A DNA stretch of 32,000 nt, taken from NCBI GenBank assembly GCA_965112635.1, contig OZ218778.1, positions 1,796,404 to 1,828,403 of the forward strand, given 5' to 3'. The translations under genes and the position numbers were made by a program. This stretch comes from an uncultured bacterium (GTDB lineage: Bacteria > Oederibacteriota > Oederibacteriia > Oederibacteriales > Oederibacteriaceae). The notes under the pieces were generated by a model. The model was not told the origin of the DNA and searched no databases. It saw only the letters and a list, made by a program, of their open reading frames with translations. This document shows positions 3,872 through 27,300 of the stretch, one piece after another (positions within the stretch are counted from its first letter, which is position 1; each line of letters starts with the position of its first letter).

Positions 3872-6247
3872 ATGAGAGTTTCCTTTGAGTGGTTAAAAGA
3901 GCTGGTTTCTTTAACCTGCTCTCCCGAGGAGCTGGCAGGCTTGTTTCCCCATCTGGGGCTCGGGGTGGAAAAGGTCATAAAATTGGGCGAAAGTCTGGAC
4001 AAGGTCGTTGTTGGCCAGATCTTGGAGATCAAGCCCCATCCGGGAGCTGACCGTTTGGTGTTATGCCAAGTAAACGTCGGCACTGCCAATAATCTTGCTA
4101 TCGTTTGCGGGGCAAAGAACATGCAAGTCCATGATAAAGTACCCGTCGCCCTGGAGGGTGCGGAACTGCCCGGAGGGATTAAGATTAAGCGTTCCAAGAT
4201 TAGGGGCGAAGAGTCGGAAGGGATGTTATGCTCAGCCAAGGAGTTGGGTTTGAGCGAGGATGCTCAGGGTGTCCTTATCCTCAAGGATGGTAAGCTGGGT
4301 GATGATATAAAGGAGACGCTAGGACTTCATGATGTTATCTTTGATCTGGAAGTGACTCCCAACAGGCCGGATTATCTGGGGGTCGTTGGTATTGCCAGAG
4401 AATTGGCTGCGTTCTTTAAATTACCCCTTAAAATGCCTATATTTTTGGTATCGGAATCGAATAAAAAGGCTTCAGAGGCAGCTCGCGTTATGATCGAGGA
4501 CCCCGACCTTTGCAGACGATATGCTGCCAGGGTGATCAGTAACATTAAGATTGGGCCGTCTCCGGAATGGTTGTGCCGACGCTTGGAAGCCGTTGGACTC
4601 AGAAGCGTTAATAGCGTGGTGGATGTGACCAATCTTGTGCTTTTTGAATGGGGACATCCTCTGCATGCCTTTGATTACAACAAGGTCAAAGACCACCAGA
4701 TCGTGGTGAGGCGTGCTAAAAAGGGTGAAAAGTTATCACTTTTAGATCAGTCCACCAAGGAGTTAAATCCACAGGTTTTAGTCATTGCTGACAGCCAAAA
4801 TCCCTTGGCTCTGGCGGGTATCATGGGAGGGACAGAATCCGCTGTCAGCGACTCTACGGAGCAGATTTTGTTAGAAAGCGCTTATTTTAACCCGGCCACG
4901 ATACGCAAAACCTCAAAGAGCCTCGGGGTAAGTTCAGATTCCTCTTATCGGTTCGAGAGGGGCGCAGACCCGGAGGGCCTTATCGAAGCTCTGGACAGAG
5001 CCGCCAGGTTGATCCAGGAAATTGCAGGAGGAGAAATTTACCAGGGCAGAGTGGATTGTTATCCGCAGAAATTTGCAAGGAAGACCATTAGCCTCCGGGT
5101 AGGCAGAGCCAATGCATTCCTGGGTGTCCAGCTGGCCAGTGAAGAGGCGCAAGATATCTTAAAAAGACTTTCTTATAAAGTCAGCGGTAAGGACCCCTTA
5201 AAAGTTGAGGTTCCAAGCTTCCGCCGAGATATCACCGAAGAGATCGACCTGGTCGAGGATATAGCCCAGCTTTACGGTTATGGCCGCATCCCAACTTCTT
5301 TGCCACGCACTTTTTTGTTAGAGAAGGATCTGAGGAATCCGGTCTATATTGATATTAGGATCAAAAGGCAATTAGCTTCCTATGGTTTGTTTGAGGTCGT
5401 CAGTGGAAGTTTAATATACTCCAAAAGGATAGAATCTCTGGCCGATAGCGGGGAAATTGTGAAGATCAAAAATCCTTTAACAGAAGACCGCGATGCCCTG
5501 CGGCCAAATTTATTGGTCTGCTTATTGGACGACTTGGCCCTCAACGCTCGGCAAGACCAAGCGAACCTGGGAATCTTCGAACTGGGAAAAGTCTTTTCAG
5601 CAGGCCAACCGATTCCCCGTGAAAGAAAGAAAATGGGTATCGCGCTCATGGGATTCCAGGAGAGGGGGGAGGGAGTAGCCTATAAGGATGGAGATTATTT
5701 TACTCTAAAAGGAATGATTGAGAACCTATTGGGTTTCCTCGGCCTCCAAGAGGTAGCCTTTCAAGAGTGCAAGAATCCCTGGTTTCTTCCGGTCTGTTCA
5801 GCGGAAATTGTTGTGAAAGGCAAAAAGATGGGAGTACTTGGAGAAATTCCCCAATCTTTGCTGCGCAAAAATGATATCAAGAAAAGGGTATTCTTTAGTG
5901 AGATAGATTTAGAAGAGATTTATTCTATGGTAAACTTTAACAAGGTTTTCAAGGGCTGGCCTAAATTTCCTTGCGTCAAGCGCGATGTCGCCGTTGTGGT
6001 TCCAAAGGACTTGCCAGCGGCCCGTGTCCTTGATTTAATTAAAACCGAAGGGTCTCCTCTTGTTGAAGAAGTGTCATTGTTTGACGTGTATGAGGGCGCA
6101 TCCATACCTGAGGATAAGAAAAGCCTAGCTTTTGCTATTTCATACCGTTCAAAAGAGCGGACCCTTACGGATGCAGAGGTAAATCAGAAACACGATCTTA
6201 TCGTTAATAAAGTTAAAGAGAAGTTTCAGGCTCAGATTAGGGTCTAG
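3872..6247 (+). CDS. pheT: Phenylalanine--tRNA ligase beta subunit
   Basis: MRVSFEWLKELV; tRNA-binding domain VVGQILEIKPHPGADRLVLCQVNVG; B3/B4, B5 and C-terminal FDX-ACB (ALAFAISYRSKERTLTDAEV) regions; SD GAGG upstream. Confidence 0.97.
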   Translation: MRVSFEWLKELVSLTCSPEELAGLFPHLGLGVEKVIKLGESLDKVVVGQILEIKPHPGADRLVLCQVNVGTANNLAIVCGAKNMQVHDKVPVALEGAELPGGIKIKRSKIRGEESEGMLCSAKELGLSEDAQGVLILKDGKLGDDIKETLGLHDVIFDLEVTPNRPDYLGVVGIARELAAFFKLPLKMPIFLVSESNKKASEAARVMIEDPDLCRRYAARVISNIKIGPSPEWLCRRLEAVGLRSVNSVVDVTNLVLFEWGHPLHAFDYNKVKDHQIVVRRAKKGEKLSLLDQSTKELNPQVLVIADSQNPLALAGIMGGTESAVSDSTEQILLESAYFNPATIRKTSKSLGVSSDSSYRFERGADPEGLIEALDRAARLIQEIAGGEIYQGRVDCYPQKFARKTISLRVGRANAFLGVQLASEEAQDILKRLSYKVSGKDPLKVEVPSFRRDITEEIDLVEDIAQLYGYGRIPTSLPRTFLLEKDLRNPVYIDIRIKRQLASYGLFEVVSGSLIYSKRIESLADSGEIVKIKNPLTEDRDALRPNLLVCLLDDLALNARQDQANLGIFELGKVFSAGQPIPRERKKMGIALMGFQERGEGVAYKDGDYFTLKGMIENLLGFLGLQEVAFQECKNPWFLPVCSAEIVVKGKKMGVLGEIPQSLLRKNDIKKRVFFSEIDLEEIYSMVNFNKVFKGWPKFPCVKRDVAVVVPKDLPAARVLDLIKTEGSPLVEEVSLFDVYEGASIPEDKKSLAFAISYRSKERTLTDAEVNQKHDLIVNKVKEKFQAQIRV

Positions 6248-7158: not shown

Positions 7159-7170
7159 TTAATCATAAAA

Positions 7171-7352
7171 ATTCCCTGCGGTGTTCGTGATGAAATGACG
7201 AGTTTTGAGCCAACACCTTTTTGGAAGGGACCCGACCTCTAAAAGCAGTGTGCATACCTTGACTCAGGTTGAGGCAGCCTAATGCTTTTTCGGGGGTACC
7301 CACTTATTCATTAAGGTTCAAAAACCAAGTTTCACACGGCACAGGTGGGGAA
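7171..7352 (+). ncRNA. ssrS: 6S RNA (SsrS)
   Basis: 5' ATTCCCTGCGGTGTTCG pairs with 3' ACACGGCACAGGTGGGGAAT to form a closing stem; length about 182 nt; located directly after zapA; TATAAT about 12 nt upstream. Confidence 0.78.
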
Positions 7353-7372
7353 TTTTTATTTTGGGGAAAGAC

Positions 7373-12991: not shown

Positions 12992-13360
12992 GTGATCGCC
13001 GTTAGAAGCAAGCCCGTCAATCAAGAATTGGTGACCACGGTCCTTAAAGCCACTGACGATAAGCAAGCCCATGATGTTGTGCTTTTAGATGTCAGAAAAT
13101 TGACCTATTTGACCGACTACCTGCTTATTTGCCATGGCCATGCCAGGACCCATATTCAAGCCATAGCCGATGAATTAAGGACCAAGCTCAAAGCGATGGG
13201 GCTGGGTTATGGGAGGATGGAGCGGGACAAGGGAGAAACCTGGATCCTGTTGGATTTTAACGAAATTATTTGCCATATTTTTTCAAAGGAAGCTAGGGAG
13301 TTCTATGCTCTGGAGAAGTTTTGGGATGAAGCTCATAAAATCAATGGTAGGATACATTAA
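12992..13360 (+). CDS. rsfS: Ribosomal silencing factor RsfS (GTG start)
   Basis: DDKQAHDVVLLDVRKLTYLTDYLLICHGHARTHIQAIADEL...ERDKGETWILLDFNEIICHIFSKEAREFYALEKFWDEA. Confidence 0.93.
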   Translation: MIAVRSKPVNQELVTTVLKATDDKQAHDVVLLDVRKLTYLTDYLLICHGHARTHIQAIADELRTKLKAMGLGYGRMERDKGETWILLDFNEIICHIFSKEAREFYALEKFWDEAHKINGRIH

Positions 13361-13392
13361 TGAATTATGATTCTATTTTCAGGGGGTGGAGC

Positions 13393-14145
13393 ATGAGGCA
13401 GATAAAGGTCGTATCCATATTTTTGTTGATGGCAGTCCTTTTAGGGGGGCTTGTCCCAGTATCCGTTTTTGGCAAGGATGAAGACACGAAGCGTGTAGCC
13501 ACAAATTTGTATGTCGTGGATATCCCTACTGCGAACACTTTATTAAGGGGCACTTATGATGCCTTTGCCAGGTTGTACGCTCCCGACGGCATTGTCGGTA
13601 GGTTTGTGATAGCCTTGAACGACCAGTTTCTTTTTGGTGGCGGTATCAACATGGAAAATATCATTGGTTCGGGGGATGTCCAGGCCCAAACTCCGCGTTT
13701 TATAGCTAAATGGAGAATTATTGCGGAGGATAAAAATATCCCTGCCTGCGCCATAGGTTATGATGGGTTGGGTTATGGTGACTATAATTCTGATTCTGGG
13801 GTTTGGCAGCACAAGCAAAAAGGTTTTTATGGCGCAGTGACCAAAGAGTTCAGTAGTTTTGGAATCTTCCAATTGACGTGTGGAATGAGCAGGGTGGATA
13901 GTCGTGTTTATGACCCCCAGCGGGATATCACGGCATTTGCGGGTCTGGCTGCGGCTATTATCAAAGAAGTAGCTCTAAATGTGGAATATGATGATTGGTT
14001 TAATACTCAGGGCGGAGAATTTAATGTCGGGCTTGGTTATAATTTTGACCCTGCCATGAAGCTGGAATTTGATCTCGAGGATATCGGAAGAGCCGGGGAT
14101 TCCCTGGAGCGCACTTTAAAGATCGAATATTGCAATTACATTTAG
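13393..14145 (+). CDS. Predicted outer-membrane beta-barrel-like protein of unknown function with signal peptide
   Basis: From ATG 13393 (SD AGGGGG upstream) a good signal peptide MRQIKVVSIFLLMAVLLGGLVPVSVFG, then a YVVDIPTANTLLRGTYDAFARLYAPDGIVGRF...GFNVGLGYNF-type alternating beta pattern; C-terminal LKIEYCNYI. Confidence 0.6.
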   Translation: MRQIKVVSIFLLMAVLLGGLVPVSVFGKDEDTKRVATNLYVVDIPTANTLLRGTYDAFARLYAPDGIVGRFVIALNDQFLFGGGINMENIIGSGDVQAQTPRFIAKWRIIAEDKNIPACAIGYDGLGYGDYNSDSGVWQHKQKGFYGAVTKEFSSFGIFQLTCGMSRVDSRVYDPQRDITAFAGLAAAIIKEVALNVEYDDWFNTQGGEFNVGLGYNFDPAMKLEFDLEDIGRAGDSLERTLKIEYCNYI

Positions 14146-14205: not shown

Positions 14206-14234
14206 TTGACAAACGGTATTATGACAAGTAATAT
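14206..14234 (+). promoter_or_regulatory. Strong predicted sigma70-type promoter for the motor-like gene cluster
   Basis: TTGACA (14206-14211), exact 17-nt spacer, TAATAT (14229-14234), about 100 nt upstream of the first gene. Confidence 0.72.
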
Positions 14235-14332: not shown

Positions 14333-14692
14333 GTGAAGGGCGTGAAAAAAGCTGATGAAATCAAAAGACCTCTGAGTTTTGCGACAGGCGAAAAACGAGA
14401 GGCCTTTAGTGCTTTGATCAGGCTTCTCCAAAATGGCGACTGTACTCCTGAAGAACTCACCAAGTATATACTTTCCCAAAAGCAATCTCAGGAACAATCC
14501 GAAGAAACAGAAATCCCCGCTTCCCGGACATTCCATTTTGGATCCGATTATAGGACTAAAGAGCGAGCCTTTACTCATTTTGAGCATATGCCCCGGATGG
14601 CCAAGCCAAAAGTTAATTATTTCAACTGGACGGTATTCTTCTTCTTTCTTTTCATGACCATCTTTATACTTCGCAATTTTATTTTTCGATGA
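14333..14692 (+). CDS. Small protein with C-terminal transmembrane anchor (119 aa; alternative GTG start at 14342)
   Basis: Hydrophilic N-terminus and C-terminal helix NYFNWTVFFFFLFMTIFILRNFIFR; ends 10 nt before the FliF/FliG-like gene. Confidence 0.65.
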   Translation: MKGVKKADEIKRPLSFATGEKREAFSALIRLLQNGDCTPEELTKYILSQKQSQEQSEETEIPASRTFHFGSDYRTKERAFTHFEHMPRMAKPKVNYFNWTVFFFFLFMTIFILRNFIFR

Positions 14693-14702
14693 GGATAAAA
14701 CA

Positions 14703-16367
14703 GTGAGCTTTATCAAAGATTGTGACAACTGGCTGCGCTTGGGAAAAATGCTTACAGGCTGGTTGTTGTTTGTGAGCATTTTCTTTATGACCAGCATCTA
14801 CGCTTTGGACTTAACCCATGGTGACCTGTTGGTCGGAAAGTTGCAATATGAAAGGGAATTAGAAAGAAGGATACAGTCCATATTGATCTCCACGGTTGGT
14901 CCTCAAAAGGCGAAAGTTTCGGTGACCCTGGAGGTCAACAGCGAAGTCGTCTCCAGCAAGGAGGAAACAATCCATTCCGAGACCACCAGCCAGACCATTG
15001 TATTGAGCAACGGCATCCAAGAGGAGAACTTTGACAATCCTGAGGCGGGGACGGGTGGTCCAGGCAAGGAAGGCAGCGCCAATCAGGCTAGCAGCAATGT
15101 CTTGGAAGAAACCCGGACCACCAAAGAAACCTTGTCGATGCCTTCCAATTTGATCAAAAAGCTGTCTATCTCTTTGTTGATCAGCGACAAGGTCCCTGAT
15201 GCTCTTATCGAAAAAGCCAAGACCATCATTATGGAAGCAGTCAGTTTTAATGCCGACAGGGGGGACCAGCTATCTTTACAAAAGGTCACCTTTATTTCCG
15301 GTGCCGCAGGGGAGATGGAGCAGATCCAGGACCAAAAACAGACAGCGGATTTCTGGCTTGCTTTAACCCGGTATGCCTTGAGCTTGATCTTGGGGGTCGC
15401 TTTCCTTTTGTTTTTGTTCAGTTTGTTAAATACTTTCCGTACCCTGAAACAGGCTGAGATCAATGTGTCCGCTCAGGCCATAGCCGCCAAGGCAGCCCCT
15501 GCCGAAGGCGAGGTCGCAGGACCGGCCGGGGCCACGGCGATCCCGGCTGCGGGATTTGCTGCCGTAGGTGTCCCCGGCACAATGCTTCCCGGGATGCCTA
15601 TGGGAATGCCTGGAACGATCACGGTTGGACCCCAGCGCTTCGCTTTCCTCCAGGAGAAGAATTCCAGGGCTCTTCTGCATTTGATCCAAAAAGAGCCGAT
15701 CCAAACTATTGCTTTAGTGCTTTCCTATATTACCCCAGAGCAGGCAGCCGGGATCTTGCAGTCCCTCCCAGGGGAGATCCAAAGCCAGGTCGCCTCTAGG
15801 ATCTCTACGATCAGTGAAATGTCACCGACGGAAGTGAACAGAATCGAGCAGGATATCAAAGAGAAGATCGATTATGTGGTGGGGGGCAGGGATTCCCTGG
15901 TCAATATCATCCAGAGCATGGGTCCCGATGGAATGAAGGCTATCATCGGCAATCTTGACAGGAGCAATCCAAAGCTGGCCGGTGAATTGAGGCCTTCACT
16001 ATTTACTTTCGATGATGTCCTCCTGTTGGATAGTTTTGCGATCCAGCAAGTTGTCAGGCAACTGAGCATTCCGGAACTGGCCATCGCTTTAAAAAATGCC
16101 AGCGAAGAGATAAAGAACAAGGTTTTTGGGGCCTTGGCTGAGGGTGCCGCCCAGTTGCTCAGGCAGGAACTGGAGTTGATGAGGCCGCTGCCCGCTCGGC
16201 GCTATATAGAAGCGCAGCGTAAATTTATTCAGGCGGTAAGGATACTTGAACAACAGGGCGTAATCTTTGTGCAGAGAGAAGAATCGACTCCTTCCTCAGT
16301 CGGCGGCAACGACCTGGGTGGTGGGCCTGGTTTAGGGCCCGATTCTCCTTTGGCGCCGATGACCTAG
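14703..16367 (+). CDS. FliF (RBM3-like, two TM segments)-FliG (middle + C-terminal) fusion protein
   Basis: FliF-like ERELERRIQSILISTVGPQKAKVSVTLEVN...ETRTTKETLSMPSNLIKKLSISLLI...EAVSFNADRGDQLSL, then TM ALSLILGVAFLLFLFSLL, an Ala/Pro/Gly linker, then FliG-like EPIQTIALVLSYITPEQAAGILQSLP...VVGGRDSLVNIIQ...LFTFDDVLLLDSFAIQQVVRQLSIPELAIALKNASEEIKNKVF. Confidence 0.88.
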   Translation: MSFIKDCDNWLRLGKMLTGWLLFVSIFFMTSIYALDLTHGDLLVGKLQYERELERRIQSILISTVGPQKAKVSVTLEVNSEVVSSKEETIHSETTSQTIVLSNGIQEENFDNPEAGTGGPGKEGSANQASSNVLEETRTTKETLSMPSNLIKKLSISLLISDKVPDALIEKAKTIIMEAVSFNADRGDQLSLQKVTFISGAAGEMEQIQDQKQTADFWLALTRYALSLILGVAFLLFLFSLLNTFRTLKQAEINVSAQAIAAKAAPAEGEVAGPAGATAIPAAGFAAVGVPGTMLPGMPMGMPGTITVGPQRFAFLQEKNSRALLHLIQKEPIQTIALVLSYITPEQAAGILQSLPGEIQSQVASRISTISEMSPTEVNRIEQDIKEKIDYVVGGRDSLVNIIQSMGPDGMKAIIGNLDRSNPKLAGELRPSLFTFDDVLLLDSFAIQQVVRQLSIPELAIALKNASEEIKNKVFGALAEGAAQLLRQELELMRPLPARRYIEAQRKFIQAVRILEQQGVIFVQREESTPSSVGGNDLGGGPGLGPDSPLAPMT

Positions 16368-16421: not shown

Positions 16422-17186
16422 ATGGATAAGATGTCATTGTTTGGCTATGTCTTTGGTGTCGGTATATTCCTGCTGGGTATGCACCAGGGCGGGACGACCA
16501 GCCTTTTCTTGAATGAGCACGCGGTGGTCCTCGTGCTGGGGGGTACCTTTGCCGCTGTCATGATCAGTTCCAGTTTTGAACAGACGGTCGTCGCGTTTAA
16601 ATCCCTCAAAATATTGTTTTACCCCAAGAAGTATATGCCTGCTCAAGAAATCATCGATGTGATGGTAGGCTTGGCTGAGAAGGCCAGAAGGGATGGAGTG
16701 GGTTCTCTGCCCGAGGAGGCAAAAAAATATAATGAGCCCTTTCTTTCCAACTCGGTTCAGCTAGTGGCGGACGGTTTGCCTTCTGCAACGGTCCAGGAGA
16801 TCATTGAAATGGAGATCAATAATACCCGGGACCGCCATAAGGAGAACAGCAATTTCTACCGTGTGGCCGGTATCTACGGCCCCATGTTCGGTCTATTAGG
16901 AACTTTGATCGGCATCGTCCAGGTGCTGAGGAATATTGGGGGGGACCCGACCACAGTGGGTCCGGCCATGGCTGTTGCCATTACGACGGCTTTTTACGGG
17001 ATATTTCTGGCGAACTTTGTGTGTATGCCCATCGCCAATAAACTGAAATTAAGATCAGATGAAGAACTCGCTTTAAAAGAACTTACCATCGTTGGTCTTA
17101 TTGCCATCGAATCCGGAGACCTACCCTTGGTTGTGCGGAGAAAGATGGAGACTTTTCTGTCCTATTCCCAGAAAAAAAAGAAATAA
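16422..17186 (+). CDS. motA: MotA-family stator protein
   Basis: LGGTFAAVMISSSFEQ...GLAEKARRDGVGSLPEEA...YGPMFGLLGTLIGIVQVLRNIG...ITTAFYGIFLANFVCMPIANKLK. Confidence 0.92.
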   Translation: MDKMSLFGYVFGVGIFLLGMHQGGTTSLFLNEHAVVLVLGGTFAAVMISSSFEQTVVAFKSLKILFYPKKYMPAQEIIDVMVGLAEKARRDGVGSLPEEAKKYNEPFLSNSVQLVADGLPSATVQEIIEMEINNTRDRHKENSNFYRVAGIYGPMFGLLGTLIGIVQVLRNIGGDPTTVGPAMAVAITTAFYGIFLANFVCMPIANKLKLRSDEELALKELTIVGLIAIESGDLPLVVRRKMETFLSYSQKKKK

Positions 17187-17256: not shown

Positions 17257-17952
17257 ATGGCCATCAGAAAAAGACCTCCTGAAGATATCGAATCCCTTAT
17301 GCATCGCGGGACGCAATGGATCATTGTTTATGGCGACCTGATGTCCTATTTGATGATATTTTTCCTTATCTTGTTCGCATTTGCCTCGGCCAAAAAAGGG
17401 AATTTCGTGGAATCCCTCAAGGGAATTGAAAAAACCTTCGGGCAAAAAGAGAAGAAGATGTCCCAGGAGGCGATGAAAGAGGTTCAGGTCCAATCCGAGA
17501 TACAAAGTTTTCTGGTCGCGCAAAACCTGACCCAAGTTGCCCGCGTGGTCATGACCGAACAAGATCTAAAAGTTATATTGACCAGCCCAGTGCTTTTTCC
17601 GTCCGGCTCGGCAGAGTTGCATCGCAAATCTTACGGTATTTTGCATACTATAGCCCAATCTATGAAAGATATGCCGAACTATGTCACGGTTGAGGGCTTC
17701 ACGGATAATGTCCCAATTCATTCAGCCAAATACAGTTCCAACTGGGAATTGTCCGCGGCGCGAGCCATGCAAGTTGTCAAATACTTTATTGAAGAGGAGA
17801 AAATCTCTCCCACTCAGATCTCCTTCACGGGGTATGGCGAGTACCAGCCGGAATATACCAATGACACCGAAGAACACCGGGGATTGAATAGAAGGATCGA
17901 GATTATCATCCACCGCATTTTGGTCCCCGTCACGGCAACAAAAAAATCGTGA
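17257..17952 (+). CDS. motB: MotB-family stator protein with OmpA/MotB peptidoglycan-binding domain
   Basis: N-terminal TM with the conserved Asp (WIIVYGDLMSYLMIFFLILFAF); OmpA-like VEGFTDNVPI...NWELSAARAMQVVKYFIE...ISFTGYGEYQP...NRRIEIII. Confidence 0.93.
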   Translation: MAIRKRPPEDIESLMHRGTQWIIVYGDLMSYLMIFFLILFAFASAKKGNFVESLKGIEKTFGQKEKKMSQEAMKEVQVQSEIQSFLVAQNLTQVARVVMTEQDLKVILTSPVLFPSGSAELHRKSYGILHTIAQSMKDMPNYVTVEGFTDNVPIHSAKYSSNWELSAARAMQVVKYFIEEEKISPTQISFTGYGEYQPEYTNDTEEHRGLNRRIEIIIHRILVPVTATKKS

Positions 17953-17968
17953 GAATGAGGGCGGGATT

Positions 17969-19459
17969 TTGAGAATAATCATATGGGTCCTAGCCGCTTT
18001 GATCGTGGGGGGTGCCGGTCTTGCGGCGGCCCAGGAAGCCCAGATGCCCAGCGCCGACATCTTTGTCCACGGTAATCTGGGGCAGCAAAAGATCGGGAAT
18101 ACGATCGTCATCCAATGCGATGTCTTTAACACGGGGCCTGTGGCGCATTTTTTCCCGGTCTCCGTGAAATTAATGAACGCTGCCGATAACATCGTCCTGC
18201 CGTTCCAGTCCATTTATTTAAAACCCGGGCAGTTCGGCACCTTGACTTTCAATTATGCCTTAAAACCCGACAGCACGAGCCTCGGCCTTTATGCGGTGGA
18301 GGGCAGTGTTTGGCAGGTTCAGGGGCCTAAAAAACGCCTGTCCCTCAAAACCGATACCCAAATCTTTGAGGTGGTGTTGGGTGAAGTTATGAAAAGTGTC
18401 GTCCTGGAAAATTTAACGCTCAAGGGGAAGGTCGTGGGAGGCTCCACGGTGTCTTTGAAATGCCTGGTCCGCAACACCGGCAAGGTTTCCTATACCTTCC
18501 CCGTGAGCGTTAATTTGAGCGGGAGCGATGGGCCTTTTATCGCACCGGTCAAGACCGTGACCCTGGGGCCCAAAAAGAACCAGGGCCTTTCTTTTGATGT
18601 CAAAATACCCGCTGAAGGGATAGAGCCTAACGCGGTTTTGAGGGTCGTCGCCTGGGATAGGAAGGACGAGAAGGGAAAGTTGCTCATGCCTTACGCTGAC
18701 GCCGTCATATCCTTGGAGACAGCCAGCCAGACCTCGGTGGAGGCGTCTTTTGACGGCGAGATAGGGGACCAGCCCCGGGGCAAGACGTTTACTATTGCTT
18801 GCAAGATTAAAAATAACGGCGGCACCCGATTTGAGTTCCCCGTCAAGCTGGATATTTTAGATTCTTCTGATGAACTGGTCGCGACCCCTAAACCTAAAAA
18901 AGTCCTTTTAAAACCAGGGGAAACGAAAAGGATCGGCTTCAGCACCGCGATCAAAGAGGTGGGTGCTTACCAAGCTGTGGTGAGTGTTTGGAAAGAAAGA
19001 CGCGGACCCGACAGTTTTGTCGATAAGCTTACGGAGGAGGAACAGAATTTTTCGATTGCCAACGAAGCCACAGGAGGGGCTGAGCAGCAGGGGATGGACC
19101 TCGGAGTCGGCGAGACCCCTTCCGTGGCCCCGCCTGCGGTGAAATTGATGGACATCATGCTGGCAACATCCCAGGACCAAAAAACACCGGTCAAGGCCCA
19201 GGTGTCCGATAAATTGGGGGCGGTTTCCTGCCGCCTCTATTACCGCCTGAGCACCGAAACAAATCCTGATTTTGTGGAGATGAACCTTTTTTCTGGAGAT
19301 GCCAAGAGTGGAGTATGGGTGGGCGAGGTGGATCTCTCCAGACTTTCTGGAAAAATAATTTTTTACGCGGAAGCGGCCAATACAGAGTCCGTGCTAGGTC
19401 GATCCAAAGAATACAGTATTGCCAAGATGGCTACTCCGAAAAACAAACCCAATAAATGA
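17969..19459 (+). CDS. Secreted/periplasmic protein with three CARDB-like beta-sandwich repeats
   Basis: Signal peptide MRIIIWVLAALIVGGAGLAAAQ; repeats GNTIVIQCDVFNTGPVAHFFPVSVKLM / GSTVSLKCLVRNTGKVSYTFPVSVNLS / GKTFTIACKIKNNGGTRFEFPVKLDIL. Confidence 0.75.
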   Translation: MRIIIWVLAALIVGGAGLAAAQEAQMPSADIFVHGNLGQQKIGNTIVIQCDVFNTGPVAHFFPVSVKLMNAADNIVLPFQSIYLKPGQFGTLTFNYALKPDSTSLGLYAVEGSVWQVQGPKKRLSLKTDTQIFEVVLGEVMKSVVLENLTLKGKVVGGSTVSLKCLVRNTGKVSYTFPVSVNLSGSDGPFIAPVKTVTLGPKKNQGLSFDVKIPAEGIEPNAVLRVVAWDRKDEKGKLLMPYADAVISLETASQTSVEASFDGEIGDQPRGKTFTIACKIKNNGGTRFEFPVKLDILDSSDELVATPKPKKVLLKPGETKRIGFSTAIKEVGAYQAVVSVWKERRGPDSFVDKLTEEEQNFSIANEATGGAEQQGMDLGVGETPSVAPPAVKLMDIMLATSQDQKTPVKAQVSDKLGAVSCRLYYRLSTETNPDFVEMNLFSGDAKSGVWVGEVDLSRLSGKIIFYAEAANTESVLGRSKEYSIAKMATPKNKPNK

Positions 19460-19499: not shown

Positions 19500-20177
19500 A
19501 TGAAGACAAGGTCAAAAAATATTTCAATGGAATTATCAATCAGCCTTTGTTTTCTTGTTTTGTTCTGCTTGTCCGCAGAGCTATGGGGCGCCCAGCCCAG
19601 CGCGACACCATTTTCCCCGCAGTCGGATAATGACTACGAACAAAATTACAACGAAGCGATGTCCTTTTACAATGCGGGATTGTTGGATAAGGCCAAGGCC
19701 AGCTTTCAAAAGGTGATCAAGATAAGACCAACGGCCGGAGCCTATCATTATCTGGGCATGATCAGCCAAAAAAAGAACCAGGTCAAAGACGCCATCTGGC
19801 AATGGAAGCAGGCTTTAAACTTGGAGCCGCGACTGGCTGTGGTCTGTTTTAATATCGGGTTGGCTTATGGTTCGTTGAAGCAAGTGGACGAACAGATTAA
19901 ATGGTATAAAAAGGCAGTGGCTTTAAATCCGAAATATTCAAAAGCATGGAACAATCTCGGTTCAGTGTATCTTGAGAAGAAGAGGACCACCGATGCATTA
20001 AATGCCTTTAGGACCTCGTTGAAAACCAATCCCCATTATGCTGTGGCCGCGGAGAATCTGGCCCTGGTCTATGAAAAGATGGGTCGTCACATTGAAGCCA
20101 AGAAGGAATGGAAATACGCCGCTTCGATAGAGACGAGGCCTGAGTGGAAAAAGGTTTTGGCAGCCAGAGCCAAGTAA
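19500..20177 (+). CDS. Tetratricopeptide-repeat protein, exported
   Basis: Signal-like N-terminus; TPR units such as AYHYLGMISQKKNQVKDAIWQWKQALNLEPR, AVVCFNIGLAYGSLKQVDEQIKWYKKAVALNPK and KAWNNLGSVYLEKKRTTDALNAFRTSLKTNP. Confidence 0.88.
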   Translation: MKTRSKNISMELSISLCFLVLFCLSAELWGAQPSATPFSPQSDNDYEQNYNEAMSFYNAGLLDKAKASFQKVIKIRPTAGAYHYLGMISQKKNQVKDAIWQWKQALNLEPRLAVVCFNIGLAYGSLKQVDEQIKWYKKAVALNPKYSKAWNNLGSVYLEKKRTTDALNAFRTSLKTNPHYAVAAENLALVYEKMGRHIEAKKEWKYAASIETRPEWKKVLAARAK

Positions 20178-20380: not shown

Positions 20381-20408
20381 TTGGGTGGGAAAACTATCCT
20401 CCTATAAT
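20381..20408 (+). promoter_or_regulatory. Predicted sigma70-type promoter for the PorV-like and giant protein genes
   Basis: TTGGGT (20381-20386), 16-nt spacer, TATAAT (20403-20408). Confidence 0.5.
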
Positions 20409-20429
20409 TTAGGAACAAGGGGTATACCG

Positions 20430-21365
20430 GTGGCTGATATACATAAAGAAAAAGATATTCTTCTTTTACCCCTTCTCATTACTTTTCTTGCCCTGACTTG
20501 CCTCATCTTCATCCCTGTCCTCGTGTCCGCTGAAGGAAATACTGCCGCTCAATTTTTAAAGATCCCTATCTCAGCCCGTCCAGCCGCCATGACTGCTTTT
20601 GGAGCCGTCTCTGACGACGTGAACGCCTTGCTTTATAACCCGGCCGGCTTATCCCAATTGTCCCAAAACGAGTTCTCCCTCTCCTATGTTAAATATTTCA
20701 CCGACACAAACATGGCATTTTTGGGACTGGCTGTCCCGCTCGCGCACATCGGCACTTTTGGTCTTGGCGTCACATACCTGAGCGTCCTGAATATTGACGC
20801 CAGGGACGCGCAGGAGAACCAGGCCGGAAGTTTTGGGAGCACGGATTGGGCCGTCACTTTGTCCTACGCCAAGGAAAACCTATGGGGCAACCTGAATGCA
20901 GGGGCAAGCCTTAAGGTGGTGGGGGAGACTATCGATGCCACAAGCGCAAACGGGCTGGCCGGCGATGTGGGGGTCCTTTGGATCGGTAAAGAGCCGAGGG
21001 CTTCGATAGGACTGGAAGTGGAAAATGTCGGGACCGGCCTGCAATTCATCAATGTCAGTGATCCCTTACCCTTGGGAGTTGTTCTATCAGGTGCTTACTG
21101 GCCAGTGGAACAGATAGTCGTCGGTACGGATGTGGACATGTATGTGCTGGAGAACAAGACCTATGTGTCCCTGGGCGGGGAAGACTGGCTGACCAAAGAG
21201 TTCGCTCTCAGGCTTGGTTACAAGTTCGGGACCGATCTGGGCCCGCTTTCCGGTTTGACCGGTGGGATAGGGCTGGCCATGGCGGGTTACAGCGTGGACT
21301 ATGCCGCTGGAGATGCCGGAGACCTGGGCACACTGCACCGGGTTTCTTTGGGAATAAAATTTTGA
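20430..21365 (+). CDS. PorV/PorQ-family outer-membrane protein
   Basis: GNTAAQFLKIPISARPAAMTAFGAVSDDVNALLYNPAGLSQLSQNEFSLSYVKYFTDTNMAFLGLAVPL signature. GTG 20430 has SD AAGGGG at 20417-20422 and lies downstream of the predicted promoter; the track start 20385 overlaps the promoter. Confidence 0.88.
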   Translation: MADIHKEKDILLLPLLITFLALTCLIFIPVLVSAEGNTAAQFLKIPISARPAAMTAFGAVSDDVNALLYNPAGLSQLSQNEFSLSYVKYFTDTNMAFLGLAVPLAHIGTFGLGVTYLSVLNIDARDAQENQAGSFGSTDWAVTLSYAKENLWGNLNAGASLKVVGETIDATSANGLAGDVGVLWIGKEPRASIGLEVENVGTGLQFINVSDPLPLGVVLSGAYWPVEQIVVGTDVDMYVLENKTYVSLGGEDWLTKEFALRLGYKFGTDLGPLSGLTGGIGLAMAGYSVDYAAGDAGDLGTLHRVSLGIKF

Positions 21366-21378
21366 AAGGGCAGGCTGA

Positions 21379-24300
21379 ATGAAGCTGGAAGGCATGTTAA
21401 AAAAAATAGGGAAGGCGGTCGTCCTGGCTCTGGTCCTGGGCCTGGGGATGATGCCTTTGGCCTATGCCGGCACCCGCATCAAAACCGTGGAATTTTTCCT
21501 GGGCCAGTATGAGATGGGGCAGGTCAATCTTATCCCTGCCCTTGAGTTTGACACCCCGTCCAAAACCATCGCCCTTCCAGAATCCTCTATTGTTGTCCGT
21601 TCAGCCTGGGTGGACATGCATTTTGTCAGCCAGGATCAAACCAATTTTGAAGCCAATTTTACCGCTGTCACCTTGACGGCAGGCTCTGCGATAGGTTTTG
21701 CCAGCACCAGCAAATTCGCCGCGGCGACAGACAGCCATGATAATGCTTATCATGTGAGATATGACTTTACTTCGGCCCTGCAAACTTTGACCACCGGCCA
21801 ATGGAATACTGGTCAAAGTGTTCAGGCCAAGATCAAATTTTTTGCCGCTACCAATTTCCATGCGGTCAAGCTGTATATCACCTATGAGTATGATGATACT
21901 TCCGCCACCCAGCTAAAAACCGTCAGATTCCCCCTGGATTCTATGGTGGGAGATTTGACCGTAGCTGACCTTCCTTGTACCGTGATGATCCCTCCAGCGG
22001 AAAGAAGTTCCCCGGGATACAGCTTGAAAGACGCCTGGTTCGAAGTGCACGGGCAGATGGATTATATCTCCGGTGCCATGACCGTAACCGCCCAGATCTA
22101 CCAGAGCGGCACTCCCCAGGGGTCTCCTTCCCAGGGAGGCTGTATCCCTTTGATCACCGGGAACGCTAATTTTGAGTGGACTTATTTTTACGATAATACA
22201 GCCAACCTGGCTCTGGATGGCACAACCCAAAGCCTGCGTTTAACGGCCAAGATGGGCAGTTTCCTGCATCCGGGCGGAGAACTGGTGGTCACTTACCAGG
22301 CCACCAATGATGTTATGGGCGCCTTAAAGACCGTGGAAATACCCCTGGCCCAGGGAGTTCTGGCCAATCAAGGTCCTGCCACTTTTACAATTCTGAATTA
22401 TCTCCAGGATAGCGGGGCCAACATACAAAAAATGTGGGCCAGGGTCAGAGGCGTCTGCAATGTGAACACTTATTCGGCCATTACTATTACCGGTGTGGCC
22501 AATGGCACACCAACGGGTCAGTTTGCTTATGAAATGTTTAGTTCCGGCGGCGGTTCAGATACCATGAATGAATACGAACTCATTTATGAAATGACCCAGC
22601 CCTATGCCAACCCCATGACCGTGACCCTGACCGCTACCGGCGGCTCCTCGCCCAGCGCTGTCCTGCTGATAACCTATGGTTGGAATAAGAACCAGAATGG
22701 ACATGAGTTCAAGACGCACCGGCAGCTGATAGGACAGGAAACCAGCCCTTTCCTGTCCGGGACAGTGGGAAATGTGACCGTTTATGCCCCTGAAACTAAT
22801 ACCAAAACCAAACAGGCTGCTTACGCGGATTGGACCTATTTTGCCGATGCCAATTCTACCAACTGGTGGGTCAGCACTACCATATCCGCGGGTTCGGGTA
22901 TGGCCCCAGCTTATGCCGCATTAGACAACAGCTATAAACAGACAGAAGGGATCAACCCAGACCTGAGTAGTGCTGTTTCTGTTTTGAATGCTTCCAATGG
23001 TCCTTATAGTTTTAATAGGAGCGGCTTTGTCATCGGTATGATGGGCGGGGATATGATCGTGACTTATGATGTAGCTTTCCCCACTTCCACCCCAACAAGT
23101 ACGCCCCCGCCGTCAACGTCAACTCCCACTACTTCTCCGACCCGGACGGCTACGGTTACGCCAACTGGAACGGCAACAACAACACCTACATCCACCTCTA
23201 CTAGAACTGCCACTAATACGGTTACTCCAACTTCCACATCGACAACCACCGTTACACTGAGTCAAACAGCTTCGGTCACTCCCAGCCTGACAATCACTCC
23301 CACTGGAACCCAGACACTCACGCAGACCTATACCGCCGGTCCCAGCCAGACGGCTACAATGACCCCTACGAGCACAACCACGATGACGGTAACAGCAACC
23401 CCTTCAGCAACGTTGACTATGACTACCACAGTCACGCAGACAGCCACACCGAATGGCGGCGGGACGACGATGCTGGATGCGATGACTGGGTTCAGCCTAG
23501 GTAGCGACCCGTGCGGCTACTTTCCTTTGCCAAGTGGTTCCATTACTCTTTCTAAAAATTCCAGTAACTATTACGATTGTTGCAATTCTTTACAAATATC
23601 CAACCTTACAAGCACTGGTACTATGGTGCAGATAAAAGTTGAAGATATCACAGGTTCTCCCCAGGATTGGTCCTGTTATTCATCCGTGTCTTTTTGGATA
23701 ATGGCAACTACTTCCGGGGTGCAATATCGGATTGGTTTAAGAGACAACTCCAGTAACTGGACTTGGTCAAGCACCAGTCCGCTTACTTGTCCAACCAGCT
23801 GGACGCAAGTAACCGTCCAGTTGCAAATGTTGGGAAATCCTACCGGATACGACGGATTTAAAAGCGGTTACCTAGGCCCTAATGACTTTAGCCAACTAAC
23901 TTGCGTGGAAATCGAATGTGATACGGCCAATGCGACCATACTAATGAATGACCTGGCGTTAGAAGGTAGTCCCTGCACACCTTCTCCCACGCCGTCTGGG
24001 TCGACCTATACTTATTCCTATACCTATACTTACACAACACCGCCGACCAACACCAATACCAATACTCCCACGCCTAGCAGCGCCACCTTGTACCTGTTGA
24101 ATACGACAACGGGTGATTCCAGTTTGTGGTATATGGACAAAACCAACCCGTCGCCCTCCACGGATACCACCACAATTCTTTCCACGGGGACCACGGCGGC
24201 TGGTAACTATTTCCTCGTTGAGCCTGGTGTGGCCAATTCCACCTCTTCAGGCACTGTTCTTCCCACTACTTTCAGCCAGATGGGCTGGAGAAGTCCAAAT

Positions 24301-27300
24301 ACTTCAGGCGGGACCATTTCAGCAGGGAACTGGACCGTTAATGTGAGCCTGACCAATAAGGCGGCCAGGTCCCACAAAGGATATGTCTGGGTCAGGTTCT
24401 GGAAGAGTTCCAACCCTGACGGCAGTGCAGCCACGGCTCTCAGCCCCTGGAACGAAAGCCCGAATCTGCTCAGTTTTCCTGCCTCGGTGACCACACTAGC
24501 GGATACTTTCAACGTTTCCATGCCGCTGGTGACCCTAAATAACGAATACCTTTTTGCGGAATACCTCTGGTTGATACAGACCGCGGGCCTTTCCAATACA
24601 GGGTTAAAATTTGTGGCCAATGAGGCCACCGGAGAGACCCTAGTTCTACCGGGATTTATTACTTTTACCCAGACCCCTACGCTGACTATGACGCCTACGG
24701 TTACCGCGACACCCGGGGGCGGCTCTCAGGTTTTTTATAACGGCGAGCCGGGGGGAGGATTTAGCGATGCAGATTGCGGCGGTGCCTGTGATTATATTGA
24801 CACGGGTGGCGGCCATGGTGGAGCGGTCACTGAGGACGGAGCCAGTGCACATTCCGGATCCTATGGTTTTGATTTTACCTATAATACTAGTGCTGCGGAT
24901 ACAGATGGTTACTTTTCCTGGACCTGGACGACCAACTATCCCAGCAGGGCCATCAACATCAACTCCTACGATACCGTGTCTTTCTGGATAAAATCGAACA
25001 GCACCAGGAACACAGATACTCTCTTCTTTTATTTGTTTGACATTAACAATGTGGCCACGAGCTCCCTGGATATTGAGCCATATATCGCTGGAGGGGGGCC
25101 TGTCAATCTTTCGTGGAAACAGGTCTCCATACCCCTTTGGGCGTTTACTTATGGCACTTTTAATAAAACCCAAGCCGCGGGTTTTGAAATAGACCTCAGC
25201 GACTCCGCCCTCACCGGGCCGGTGACCCTGCATATGGATGACGGATATTTCATGTTCTCCGGAGTGGGCACTCCCACCACTACACCCACACCAACGGCCA
25301 CACCGAATGGCAGTTGCCCTAATAACCCCGCAATGTCAAATATCAGCATAGGGGTTGGTTCGGGGTATTCCAACTATAATGCCGGAACCTATACTGTCAA
25401 TGGAATGGGCAATGGTGTTACAAATAGCGCTGATTCGTTCGACCTGGATTATCTAAGCGTTACGGGAAACAGTATTACGATGGTAGCCAGGGTGACGGGG
25501 GCTACTTATAACTCCGGCATCACAATCAGAAATAGCACCGGCAACGCCGCGGCCTTGGTCGCGCTGTCCATGAATAACAGCGGCATGCTTTACTGTTTAT
25601 ACCGGTACAACGACGGTATGGTAGCCAATAGCACTTATTATGGAACATATTCCTTCCCTTACTACCTTAAGATCATCCGCTATGGAAGCAGTAATTTTGA
25701 TCTCCAGATATCAGCGGATGGCAACACTTGGAATGAGTTGACTTTTCTGAACGGGGTATCTTTAGGCAGTACGGTTGCTGTGGGACTCGAGACCTGGGAT
25801 GGCACTGACACGGTCACGGCCACCGGAACTTTTGATAATGTTTGTATTCAAAGCTCCGGGGGGGTCAGTACCCCAACCTATACCCAGACCCTGACACCCA
25901 CGCCATCAGGACCGACCAATACTATTACCAATACCTTTACTATTACCAATACGATTACCCCTTCCTTTACCCCTGTGGGAGCGACCTATACCAACACCCC
26001 CGTTTCCTGCGGGTGGTCCGAGGCGTTGCTGAGCCCGGCTGAACAGCCCTGGCAGTCGGGATACAACGATACGCAGCCTGGCACCAACGCTCCTTATCCA
26101 GTTGCCGGGGTAGCCAACCTGGGGCAGGGGATAGCCAATTTCGGCTGCGGCCAGGGCTATATTGCCACCAATTCGGACCAGGATGTCTACCAGTTCCGCA
26201 TTCTGAGCTCGGACATCAATAACGGCACCTGCACCAATATGCTTAAGATAGTTTTCACTCCCCCGTCCACTAGTGATAGTTATTATTGTAATCTTTATCA
26301 CTGGAGCGGCTCTTCCTGGCAATCTTCGAATAGCCACAGCGGGGGCAGTGCCATGACCTTTTATTGCGATCTGTCCGCGGGCGGGAACCAGGATTTTTAT
26401 ATGGTCATCGGCAGCCAAAGCGGTTCCGACCAAGGTCATCCCTATGTGGTCCAGATGTCTATGTTGCAAACCGGGACTATCAGCGGCGTAGTGACGGCCG
26501 TTGGCGTGGGGGCTTCTGGGTCAAGCGGCATTGGAGTCTCGGCATGCGATTCTCAGAGCAATAGTTTTGGCGGGAGCTCCACGAACTCCTCAGGGGCCTA
26601 CACGGTCCGTGTGCCAATCAATACGACGGTTTCCAAGATTACCGCGACGCGCGGATGGTACTACGGATGCGCCAGTGACTGGTCCTATGGAACTTCGGTA
26701 CTTAACTACGGCGCCGGGGAGGTACTGGCCTCTCAGTGCCAAAGTCTGACCAACCAAAATTTCAATGTTTATCCTGACGCGATCTTAAAAGGAAATATAA
26801 CAGGGCTGACCAACGGGACCAGTATCAATATGAAGATCAGTGACCCCTATGGCTCCAATTTTTCAAATTACGTGCAATTTAACTATAATTCTTCCGCCCC
26901 GACCTATTATGAGATCCACAACGCCATGCCGCGCACCTATGATCTATCCGTTTATCCCAGCGATGCTACTAAAGCCCCGCTGTTCTTCCATAATATAACC
27001 GTCACGGATGGCTTGCAGACCACCCAGAACTGGAACTTTATCTCGGGCGGCAGCATCAGCGGGACGATCTCGCCGACGGATCCCGGCGTGGAGGTAGACT
27101 TTTACGAGGGAGGGACCAATTTTTCAGGGGATCCCATTTATACGACCAGGACCGCTTCTGGTGCTTCCTACTTTATGACCAATATGCAACCGGGTAGTTA
27201 TGATATAAAGCTCAGCTCCGGTGGTGGTGGCCCGGCACCCTTTTACGCCTATAACTCAATACCCGTGACCAATGGCAACAACACCAACCAGCCGATCACC

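Follow-up and report, generated by a model that had tools for sequence, protein, structure and literature searches.

The stretch of DNA analysed here, called the window below, covers 32,000 nucleotides (nt) from the genome of an uncultured bacterium of the Oederibacteriota (GenBank: GCA_965112635.1, contig OZ218778.1). Near its middle it carries a gene for a protein of 554 amino acids (aa), in which parts of the two flagellar rotor proteins FliF and FliG are joined in one chain. The fusion gene starts with a GTG codon and has the Shine-Dalgarno sequence GAGGA about 8 nt upstream. The protein is built in the order transmembrane helix (TM), RBM3/beta-collar, TM, Ala/Gly/Pro linker, FliG_M and FliG_C. 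The gene and the parts of its product are:

14703 to 16367, plus strand: FliF(RBM3/collar)-FliG(M+C) fusion of 554 aa, proposed single-chain rotor subunit (Pfam, NCBIfam, profile-profile comparison, PDB profiles)
14751 to 14807, plus strand: N-terminal hydrophobic segment, TM1 or signal anchor, residues 17-35 (hydropathy scan)
14835 to 15302, plus strand: periplasmic RBM3, interrupted by a shortened beta-collar, residues ~45-200 (PF08345, hhalign, family conservation)
15372 to 15434, plus strand: TM2, residues ~224-244 (hydropathy; aligns with the TM2 region of Vibrio FliF)
15438 to 15635, plus strand: cytoplasmic linker rich in Ala/Gly/Pro, residues 246-311, where the FliF C-tail and FliG_N would otherwise be (composition)
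15636 to 15878, plus strand: FliG middle domain (ARM_M), residues 312-392 (Pfam FliG_M, 72.8 bits)
15951 to 16277, plus strand: FliG C-terminal torque domain, residues 417-525 (Pfam FliG_C, 100.6 bits; PDB: 1LKV, 1QC7)

Pfam annotates YscJ_FliF_C (Pfam: PF08345) at residues 61-197 over the full profile (1-147 of 147, E-value 3e-11), FliG_M at residues 322-392 and FliG_C at residues 417-521. With the NCBIfam model fliF (TIGR00206), residues 46-141 align to positions 241-340 of 555 with 37.2 bits against a cutoff of 129.75, and with the model fliG (TIGR00207) residues 312-526 align to positions 111-331 of 338 with 151.8 bits against a cutoff of 226.7. A profile of 61 members of the fusion family described below was also compared with canonical proteins. 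Residues 35-200 matched positions 231-420 of 40 FliF proteins in a single alignment (probability 99.6%, E-value 2.6e-24), and residues 307-527 matched positions 103-330 of 336 in 13 FliG proteins (E-value 3.6e-47). The best match to a PDB profile is the middle-plus-C fragment of T. maritima FliG (PDB: 1LKV, E-value 1.9e-73), and Salmonella FliF is matched from residue 241 to about 464-511, the end varying with the profile used. Taking all methods together, the fusion covers only FliF ~231-465 and FliG ~103-331.

For FliF 1-230, the part with RBM1 and RBM2, no match was obtained by Pfam (PF01514), hhalign or PDB-profile alignment. An independent FliG_N domain (FliG 1-102) was not found either, and the alignments begin at FliG residue 103-121. 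The only two FliG_N signals fall on FliG_M residues, PF14842 with 28 bits at residues 333-421 and PDB 5TDY at profile positions 301-349, and because the ARM repeats are homologous we regard them as cross-matches and not as an extra domain. The linker contains 16 Ala, 10 Gly and 8 Pro in its 66 residues (52% Ala/Gly/Pro) and gave no profile match when the family profile was compared with canonical FliF and FliG. In flagella, FliG_N binds FliF's C-terminal tail. As the place of this tail holds only the 66-residue linker, we judge the tail to be absent.

These results bear on a first-pass annotation of the region 14703-15625 (residues 1-307 of the fusion), which had been made from the letters of the DNA alone. 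Its claim that RBM1/RBM2 and FliG_N are missing agrees with Pfam, NCBIfam, profile-profile comparison and PDB profiles, and holds for the whole family; the outcome that it had named as a refutation, RBM1/RBM2 or FliG_N being identified in the sequence, did not arise. The strings ERELERRIQSIL...VGPQKAKVSVTLEV, by which it had recognised that TM1 leads straight into the RBM3/collar, lie at residues 50-77, and PF08345 covers 61-197. It was likewise right in placing an Ala/Pro/Gly/Met linker (string at ~261-305) after TM2 and FliG_M directly behind it, from residue 312. The proposal that covalent fusion substitutes for the joint of FliF tail and FliG_N fits the family-wide domain loss, and the suggested resemblance between RBM3 and SpoIIIAG is detectable as sequence similarity (PDB: 5WC3, E-values 3e-7 to 5e-6).

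Like FliF, the fusion has two membrane segments around a periplasmic region, which is only ~185 aa long, and it has RBM3, the beta-collar and the RGD motif; RBM1, RBM2 and the FliG_N-binding C-tail are missing. Among the conserved features of the RBM3/collar are K46, E50, G66, PG (117-120) and RGD (186-188), and R186-G187-D188 is invariant or near-invariant both in the fusion family and in canonical FliF. The collar is shorter, with ~65 residues against ~110 in canonical FliF, and keeps the conserved PG tip. Like FliG, the fusion has ARM_M and ARM_C joined by helix_MC and a Gly-Gly hinge (G394-G395), which is near-invariant in the family, and FliG_N is missing. The fusion is not a bona fide FliF or FliG, as defining domains are missing and its scores lie below the curated cutoffs. 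It clearly makes use of parts of both. Judged by its domain content, we lean slightly towards the view that it is a complete minimal rotor subunit in a single chain. In a clade of fusions with ~28% identity to the window protein, the segment equivalent to TM1 ends with AFA followed by ID, resembling a signal-peptidase site between the two.

The identical 554-aa protein is present in three assemblies, namely that of NCBI (on a 2.88-Mb contig), that of ENA (on a 231-kb contig) and the Logan read assembly. A 56%-identical protein and the ~28%-identity clade show the same architecture on independent contigs, each with motA as the next gene, and a scan of species-representative genomes gave six further loci. 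Moreover, an exhaustive HMMER search with the profile of the N-terminal (FliF-like) part against 1.84 billion cluster representatives resulted in 2221 matches at an E-value of at most 1e-3 and 258 at an E-value of at most 1e-10. The best 150 matches were sorted with local profiles into 61 new representatives at 50% identity with the architecture TM-RBM3-TM-linker-FliG_MC, 67 ordinary FliF proteins (with the match at ~235-460) and 22 short N-terminal pieces. The 61 further clusters are a lower bound, counted among the best 150 matches; their representatives are 352-836 aa long, most of them 460-705 aa.

Between close relatives, dN/dS (Nei-Gojobori) is 0.16-0.27 overall, 0.13-0.31 for the RBM3 half and 0.11-0.22 for the FliG half, and the linker lies above the domains with 0.23-0.59. 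For the window gene and its 56% homologue, pN is 0.30 and pS is 0.79 (saturated). Architecture and synteny are kept across clusters which share ~25% identity. The fusion family is large and selectively maintained. Because of the copies in three assemblies, the divergent homologues and the purifying selection, a chimera, a frameshift or a decaying relic are poor explanations; the comparison with independent contigs, which the first-pass annotation had proposed as a check for an assembly chimera, thus came out in favour of a genuine gene. We found no description of the fusion family, or of an association of FliG-MotAB with PorV/TPR, in open-access papers and preprints. The fusion is a real, widespread and undescribed variant of the flagellar rotor protein pair. 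We also calculated a neighbour-joining tree of the RBM3 region of fusions and canonical FliF, in which the distances were saturated (NaN), and we draw no claim of monophyly or ancestry from it; it speaks neither for nor against the 'ancestral-like' rotor considered in the first-pass annotation.

Several members of the family deviate in their outer parts. A third TM helix follows FliG_C at the C-terminus in the ~28% clade (P0003, P0004, P0027) and in the related P0031, while a group of fusions with 620-705 aa (P0033; L027, L031, L066, L074, L077) has cytoplasmic TPR repeats fused after FliG_C. P0139 (836 aa) and P0162 (796 aa) carry further unexplained extensions. In one locus (L071, 5487-7278) a clade-B gene, otherwise 100% identical to that of L008 (4985-6742), is split by a 34-nt duplication into two overlapping open reading frames (ORFs). 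The duplication is due to an error of the assembly or else belongs to a natural variant in which the gene is inactivated.

The fusion gene is part of a run of genes that continues past the end of the window. From 14333 to past 32000 all genes lie on the plus strand, with gaps of 10-207 nt. The other features of the run are:

14206 to 14234, plus strand: promoter-like site TTGACA, 17-nt spacer, TAATAT, in the 187-nt gap before the gene run (consensus match only)
14333 to 14692, plus strand: small protein of 119 aa, TM helix at the C-terminus, 10 nt between its end and the fusion gene (clade-specific)
16422 to 17186, plus strand: flagellar-type MotA/PomA stator A subunit, 254 aa (NCBIfam; Pfam MotA_ExbB)
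17257 to 17952, plus strand: MotB stator B subunit, 231 aa, with plug, TM Asp (YGD) and OmpA-like peptidoglycan-binding domain (Pfam MotB_plug and OmpA; NCBIfam MotD/MotB/MotS)
17969 to 19459, plus strand: exported protein of 496 aa with several weak Ig-like (CARDB/HYDIN-like) repeats and an N-terminal hydrophobic leader (weak Pfam matches, E-value ~1e-3)
19500 to 20177, plus strand: TPR protein of 225 aa with a signal-like N-terminus (Pfam TPR_1/2/8)
20385 to 21365, plus strand: PorV/PorQ-family outer-membrane beta-barrel of 326 aa, ending in GIKF (NCBIfam NF033709, 157 bits, cutoff 90)
21379 to 32000, plus strand: giant secreted protein, 3540 aa or longer, signal peptide present, open-ended, 13 nt past the barrel gene, with Thr/Ala/Gln-rich 384-nt tandem repeats at 29642-30473

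The MotA protein scores with the NCBIfam models of PomA (184 bits), MotA (176 bits) and MotP (175 bits), against 23 bits for TolQ and 17 bits for ExbB. It keeps a basic residue at the R90 equivalent and an acidic EE near the E98 equivalent, and the prolines of TM3 and TM4 are present. MotA and MotB of the window have the features of a flagellar stator, but all their scores lie below the NCBIfam equivalog cutoffs, so that we regard them as divergent members.

The barrel of the window is homologous to the barrel halves of the barrel-TPR genes which adjoin other fusions, and its TPR protein is related to the TPR parts of these partners and of the longer fusions. The Ig-repeat protein was not found beside fusions of other clades and is therefore clade-specific. 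No Pfam or NCBIfam family was found for the 119-aa protein; a partial ORF homologous to it precedes the 56%-identical fusion in L006 (phmmer E-value 5e-07). The giant protein has no Pfam family, and a query of 1000 aa gave only weak, uninformative relatives; it is possibly a cargo or a surface partner. Besides the fusion and motAB, no flagellar gene was found in the 32-kb window, that is no FliM/FliN, export-gate, rod or hook genes. GldK/L/M/N (PorK/L/M/N), SprA/Sov, PorU and cargo with a C-terminal sorting domain were not recognisable in it either; the C-terminus of the giant protein falls past the end of the window.

Upstream of the motor run lie the housekeeping genes infC, rplT, pheST, zapA, 6S RNA, proBA, nadD and rsfS. 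The 6S RNA (Rfam: RF00013, 92.7 bits) is at 7170-7355 on the plus strand, between zapA and a gene for an MgsA/RarA-type ATPase. The nearest named relatives of PheT (3872-6247, plus strand) are only ~45% identical (Candidatus Poribacteria), which indicates a deep-branching lineage. Between rsfS and the motor run, at 13360-14145 on the plus strand, is a gene for a beta-rich protein of 261 aa with a signal-like N-terminus and no family match. It is conserved only in copies of the same genome and may be another outer-membrane protein.

To describe the surroundings of the fusion in relatives, we collected 97 loci and annotated their ORFs by local phmmer and hmmsearch runs with the window proteins, the partners of the relatives and the flagellar proteins of locus L015 as queries. 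The metagenome scan behind this census was designed on an alignment of 10 sequences, as one of 38 sequences was too diverse, so that the census is biased towards four groups. The loci contain 84 full-length fusion ORFs, of which 68 are distinct at 95% identity, and these fall into 17 clusters at 50% identity. In 63 of the 73 loci with room, the gene directly upstream of the fusion encodes a PorV/PorQ-family barrel with C-terminal TPR repeats. In 11 of the 17 clusters, all members that allow the test show this arrangement. Two of the barrel-TPR partners score above the NCBIfam PorV/PorQ cutoff (132 and 102 bits) and a third below it (59 bits). Of 31 loci that extend 6 kb or more downstream, 27 contain MotA, in 18 cases as the next gene after the fusion and in 9 at a distance of 2.8-6.4 kb, and it is usually accompanied by one or two MotB genes. 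Furthermore, a match to the type-B sorting domain of type IX secretion systems (T9SS) was found in related loci at the cutoff (35.4 vs 35 bits), and matches to the type-A domain are weak or below cutoff.

Flagellar genes were found near the fusion in only one cluster, and none within 10 kb on either side in the other 16 clusters. In the exception, L015 (GenBank: GCA_041650635.1, JBAZKV010000024.1, 3096-12538), a fusion of 480 aa (P0042) heads a compact flagellar-like operon. The genes follow in the order fusion, MotA, MotB, FliK, an unassigned gene, a FlgE-like gene, FliM, FliN, a second unassigned gene, FliP, FliQ and FliR, and then a gene with an FlhB family domain. The MotB of this operon carries LysM instead of OmpA, and no separate fliF or fliG was found in the 3 kb upstream. 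P0102, the second member of the flagellar-operon group, lies on a contig of 2 kb. The window protein scores 318-378 bits with the profiles of the PorV/TPR-linked groups and 170 bits with that of the flagellar-operon group. Because of these higher scores, and because of the TPR and barrel genes in its own run, we group the window fusion with the non-flagellar contexts. The first-pass annotation had proposed a rotor without the ring that houses the export gate. The loss of RBM1/RBM2 and the lack of a gate gene in the 32-kb window stand on its side, but the loss by itself does not imply that a gate is absent, as the L015 subgroup indicates.

Other neighbourhoods of the family have features of their own. 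In the ~28% clade (L008, 9197-15347; L009, L010, L030, L058, L063, L094) the module includes two MotB paralogues. Downstream follow a dCache histidine kinase, a triple-REC-GGDEF protein, two multi-REC proteins, a small protein with a match to CHU_C (type IX sorting) and a second barrel-TPR-like gene; these neighbours suggest c-di-GMP or phosphorelay control. The metagenome-assembled genomes with this clade are labelled 'Clostridia bacterium', but this label seems inconsistent with their PorV-like barrels, their T9SS sorting domains and a MotB of OmpA type. In L018 (410-2311), L076, L079 and L082, with fusions of 473-499 aa, the upstream gene encodes a conserved protein of ~633-663 aa instead of barrel-TPR, for which no Pfam or NCBIfam family was found. 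Downstream of these fusions are MotA and two MotB genes, and in L076 also a TPR protein. Finally, in L017 (12085-16145) a fusion of 672 aa is adjoined by an 830-aa protein without known family and a Roadblock/LC7 (MglB-like) protein. Two PorV-like barrels lie 5-9 kb upstream there, together with proteins that have matches to CHU_C/Por_Secre_tail domains, one of which is a Peptidase_S8 protease.

The FliG part of the fusion differs from canonical FliG at positions known to contact other rotor and stator proteins. The FliM-binding motif EHPQ(R) is not kept and reads EPIQ in the window fusion. Its His is found in 0 of 61 fusions and its Gln in 6 of 61, compared with 8 of 11 and 11 of 11 canonical FliG proteins, and the motif is degenerate in the L015 group as well. 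The torque helix is AEGAAQLLRQELELMRP (residues 478-496, window 16134-16190). As reference positions we used K264, R281, D288, D289 and R297 of E. coli FliG (numbering in part after PMC7564593 and PMC12505986), and at their presumed equivalents the window fusion has K at 264, G at 281, Q at 288, E at 289 and P at 297. The R281 equivalent is Arg in 11 of 11 canonical FliG proteins and in 2 of 61 fusions (Gly in 42), and a conserved Glu precedes this Gly, giving the family signature 'SEGA'. At the R297 equivalent Arg never occurs in the fusions, and Lys or Arg is often found three positions earlier. The acidic pair D288/D289 is mostly kept as EE or QE.

In flagella, R90 and E98 of MotA contact D289 and R281 of FliG (PMC7564593, PMC12505986). 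The partner MotAs of the fusions keep the R90-like base and the E98-like acids, so that there is no simple compensatory change of charge in MotA to match the change from R281 to Gly. Based on these residues, the FliG_C-MotA contact is probably similar to the flagellar one but not identical.

We consider it somewhat probable that in the genome of the window this module works outside a flagellum, as an envelope rotor-stator with outer-membrane partners. In such a machine, ~30 or more copies of the fusion would form a ring of RBM3 and collar in the periplasm and, in 1:1 ratio, a ring of FliG_MC under the inner membrane, and the flexible linker would replace the non-covalent joint of FliF tail and FliG_N. 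MotAB units anchored to the peptidoglycan would push the torque helix of FliG_C and turn the ring with ion-motive force, and the periplasmic collar might couple via the TPR protein to the outer-membrane barrel. Without an RBM2 layer, the ring would offer no seat for a type III gate. This fits with what is known of the parts: RBM3 on its own assembles into rings, the inner ring being made by RBM2 (PMC8786727); the export gate sits within this RBM2 ring (PMC11739650); and ring assembly has also been seen with engineered FliF-FliG fusions (PMC11481574).

Because of the recurrent PorV/PorQ barrels, the type-IX-sorted neighbours and the giant secreted protein, all of them features of the gene neighbourhood, a role in surface-protein handling is suggested. 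As to the output of the module, our best guess is the movement, gating or anchoring of large surface proteins, of the kind handled by type IX secretion. Going further, the fusion, MotAB and the PorV/PorQ barrel with TPR might together be an unrecognised envelope-spanning rotary machine of uncultured diderms, which takes the torque-generating pair of FliG_C and MotAB from the flagellum, builds on an RBM3 ring, has no type III export apparatus and moves, secretes or anchors large surface proteins. This more extensive proposal is a tentative one, and we hold it to be rather doubtful.

Several points weigh against a module outside the flagellum. The window is 32 kb of a genome of 2.88 Mb, and genes for flagellar export, rod, hook and filament may sit elsewhere. 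One related subgroup (L015), with its domains reduced in the same way, is part of a real flagellar operon, and the census of neighbourhoods is biased towards the clades behind the design of the metagenome scan. Since such genomes contain many PorV-like barrels and type-IX-sorted proteins, some of the adjacency could be incidental, but this would hardly account for a barrel-TPR gene immediately next to the fusion in 11 divergent clusters. In the window itself, barrel and TPR are separate genes downstream of the fusion and not one gene upstream of it. Ring formation and rotation of the fusion are predictions from its sequence, and with Gly at R281 and Pro at R297 the contact to the stator may differ from the flagellar one.

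The strongest competing explanation is that the fusion is the MS/C-ring protein of a genuine, streamlined flagellum, where it would replace fliF and fliG as in L015, with the other flagellar genes elsewhere in the genome. P0042 of L015 heads a flagellar run with the same architecture, the stator of the window is clearly of flagellar type, and only ~1% of the genome was seen. We nevertheless think this unlikely. The window protein is nearer to the PorV/TPR-linked groups than to the L015 group by the bit scores given above (318-378 vs 170), and its gene run has TPR and PorV/PorQ genes and no flagellar gene. In the other 16 clusters, no flagellar gene lies within 10 kb on either side of the fusion. 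The EHPQ signature is degenerate, although likewise in the L015 group, and there is no RBM2 ring to seat the export gate (PMC11739650).

A static or gated conduit or scaffold in the envelope, comparable to SpoIIIAG or SctJ, with FliG_MC-MotAB as energiser or as mechanosensory signalling input, is another reading, for which the torque-helix charges unlike those of canonical FliG can be cited. The RBM3 fold also builds the non-rotating SpoIIIAG ring (PMC4768692), and in the ~28% clade the genes behind the module encode a dCache histidine kinase, three multi-receiver proteins and one REC-GGDEF cyclase. These signalling genes are absent from the run of the window. Moreover, MotA keeps the R90-like and E98-like charges of its loop, and both halves of the fusion are under purifying selection. 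To our knowledge, FliG_C together with a plug-bearing, peptidoglycan-anchored MotAB is so far known only as a rotor-stator pair, and we give a static ring still less credence than a streamlined flagellum.

That the fusion is a functionless, decaying remnant of a lost flagellum is very improbable. Lineages without flagella, the Chlamydiaceae for example, are known to have orphan flagellar genes (PMC4768692), but here the frame is intact, dN/dS is 0.16-0.27 in relatives, pN against pS is 0.30 vs 0.79 for the 56% homologue, architecture and synteny are conserved at ~25% identity, and key stator residues are intact. The split clade-B gene of L071 shows that assembly errors or variants occur, yet a chimera or frameshift of two genes can be practically dismissed for the window, as the identical protein is present in three independent assemblies, dozens of divergent homologues are uninterrupted, and the loss of RBM1/2, FliF tail and FliG_N is not expected from a simple read-through from fliF to fliG. 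A Zorya-like anti-phage system on a MotAB homologue was rejected with similar certainty, since MotB matches the PADLOC ZorB models (E-value 1.8e-21) as any MotB does, ZorA, ZorC and ZorD have no match, and MotA is short, of flagellar type and without the ZorA tail.

A question in models for the origin of the flagellum is whether its rotor-stator and type III export cores once existed as separate modules. The fusion is a widespread and maintained rotor subunit, cut down to RBM3 and FliG_MC, with a stator of flagellar type and usually outside flagellar operons. This makes it possible to test which parts a minimal FliG/MotAB rotor needs, for what purpose the joint of FliF tail and FliG_N and the RBM1/2 layers are required, and whether FliG-MotAB torque is put to non-flagellar use. 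If the proposal of an envelope rotary machine is true, the flagellar rotor-stator core can exist and work stand-alone. The PorV/PorQ-TPR partner is conserved, which suggests an unexplored link to the handling of outer-membrane or surface proteins in sediment bacteria. If the genome encodes a flagellum elsewhere, the fusion still offers a natural case for testing how an export gate can be accommodated when there is no RBM2 ring, and the flagellar operon of L015 raises the same question.

With the canonical flagellum, the fusion shares RBM3/beta-collar, FliG_M, Gly-Gly hinge and FliG_C as homologous parts in the same order and topology, and the stator of the window is of the MotA/PomA and MotB type with plug, TM Asp and peptidoglycan-binding domain. 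In contrast to the flagellum, the fusion is one chain and not two, lacks RBM1, RBM2, the FliF C-tail and FliG_N, and has a shorter collar. It has EPIQ for EHPQ, Gly at R281, Pro at R297 and the 'SEGA' signature, and its neighbours in the window are PorV/PorQ and TPR genes and none of FliM/FliN, export gate, rod or hook.

The FliF-FliG fusion of the Chlamydiaceae (~330 aa; Bergeron 2016), with RBM2, an uncharacterised RBM-like domain and only FliG_M (PMC4768692), is the only natural FliF-FliG fusion that we found described in the open-access literature. Both are natural covalent fusions in a non-flagellar context, without FliG_N and the FliF tail. The chlamydial protein lacks the FliG_C torque domain and a cognate MotAB, whereas the window fusion has the complementary parts, RBM3/collar together with FliG_M and FliG_C, and an adjacent MotAB. 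In line with this, the chlamydial model (NCBIfam: PRK05934) aligns only residues 317-363, the start of FliG_M, to its positions 290-336 of 341, with 26 bits against a cutoff of 297, which places the fusion outside that family. Engineered fusions in Salmonella and Vibrio indicate that covalent 1:1 linkage of FliF and FliG is compatible with ring assembly (PMC11481574, PMC6079021). Unlike the window protein, they are full-length or have small deletions, keep RBM1-3 and most of FliG_N, and work within a complete flagellum.

SpoIIIAG shares the RBM3-type ring fold, a beta insertion included, assembles into large rings in the absence of RBM1/2 and gives a weak sequence match (PDB: 5WC3). It differs in having a single TM and neither a cytoplasmic FliG part nor a stator, and it is not thought to rotate. 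The likeness to the T9SS and gliding machinery (GldLM/PorLM) consists in an ion-driven inner-membrane motor that is genetically tied to PorV/PorQ-family barrels, of which the window gene at 20385-21365 is one, and related fusion loci adjoin proteins with matches to the type-B (and weakly to the type-A) sorting domain. The difference lies in the motor, which consists of FliG-MotAB and an RBM3 ring in place of GldL/GldM, and the link between the two systems is a genomic one.

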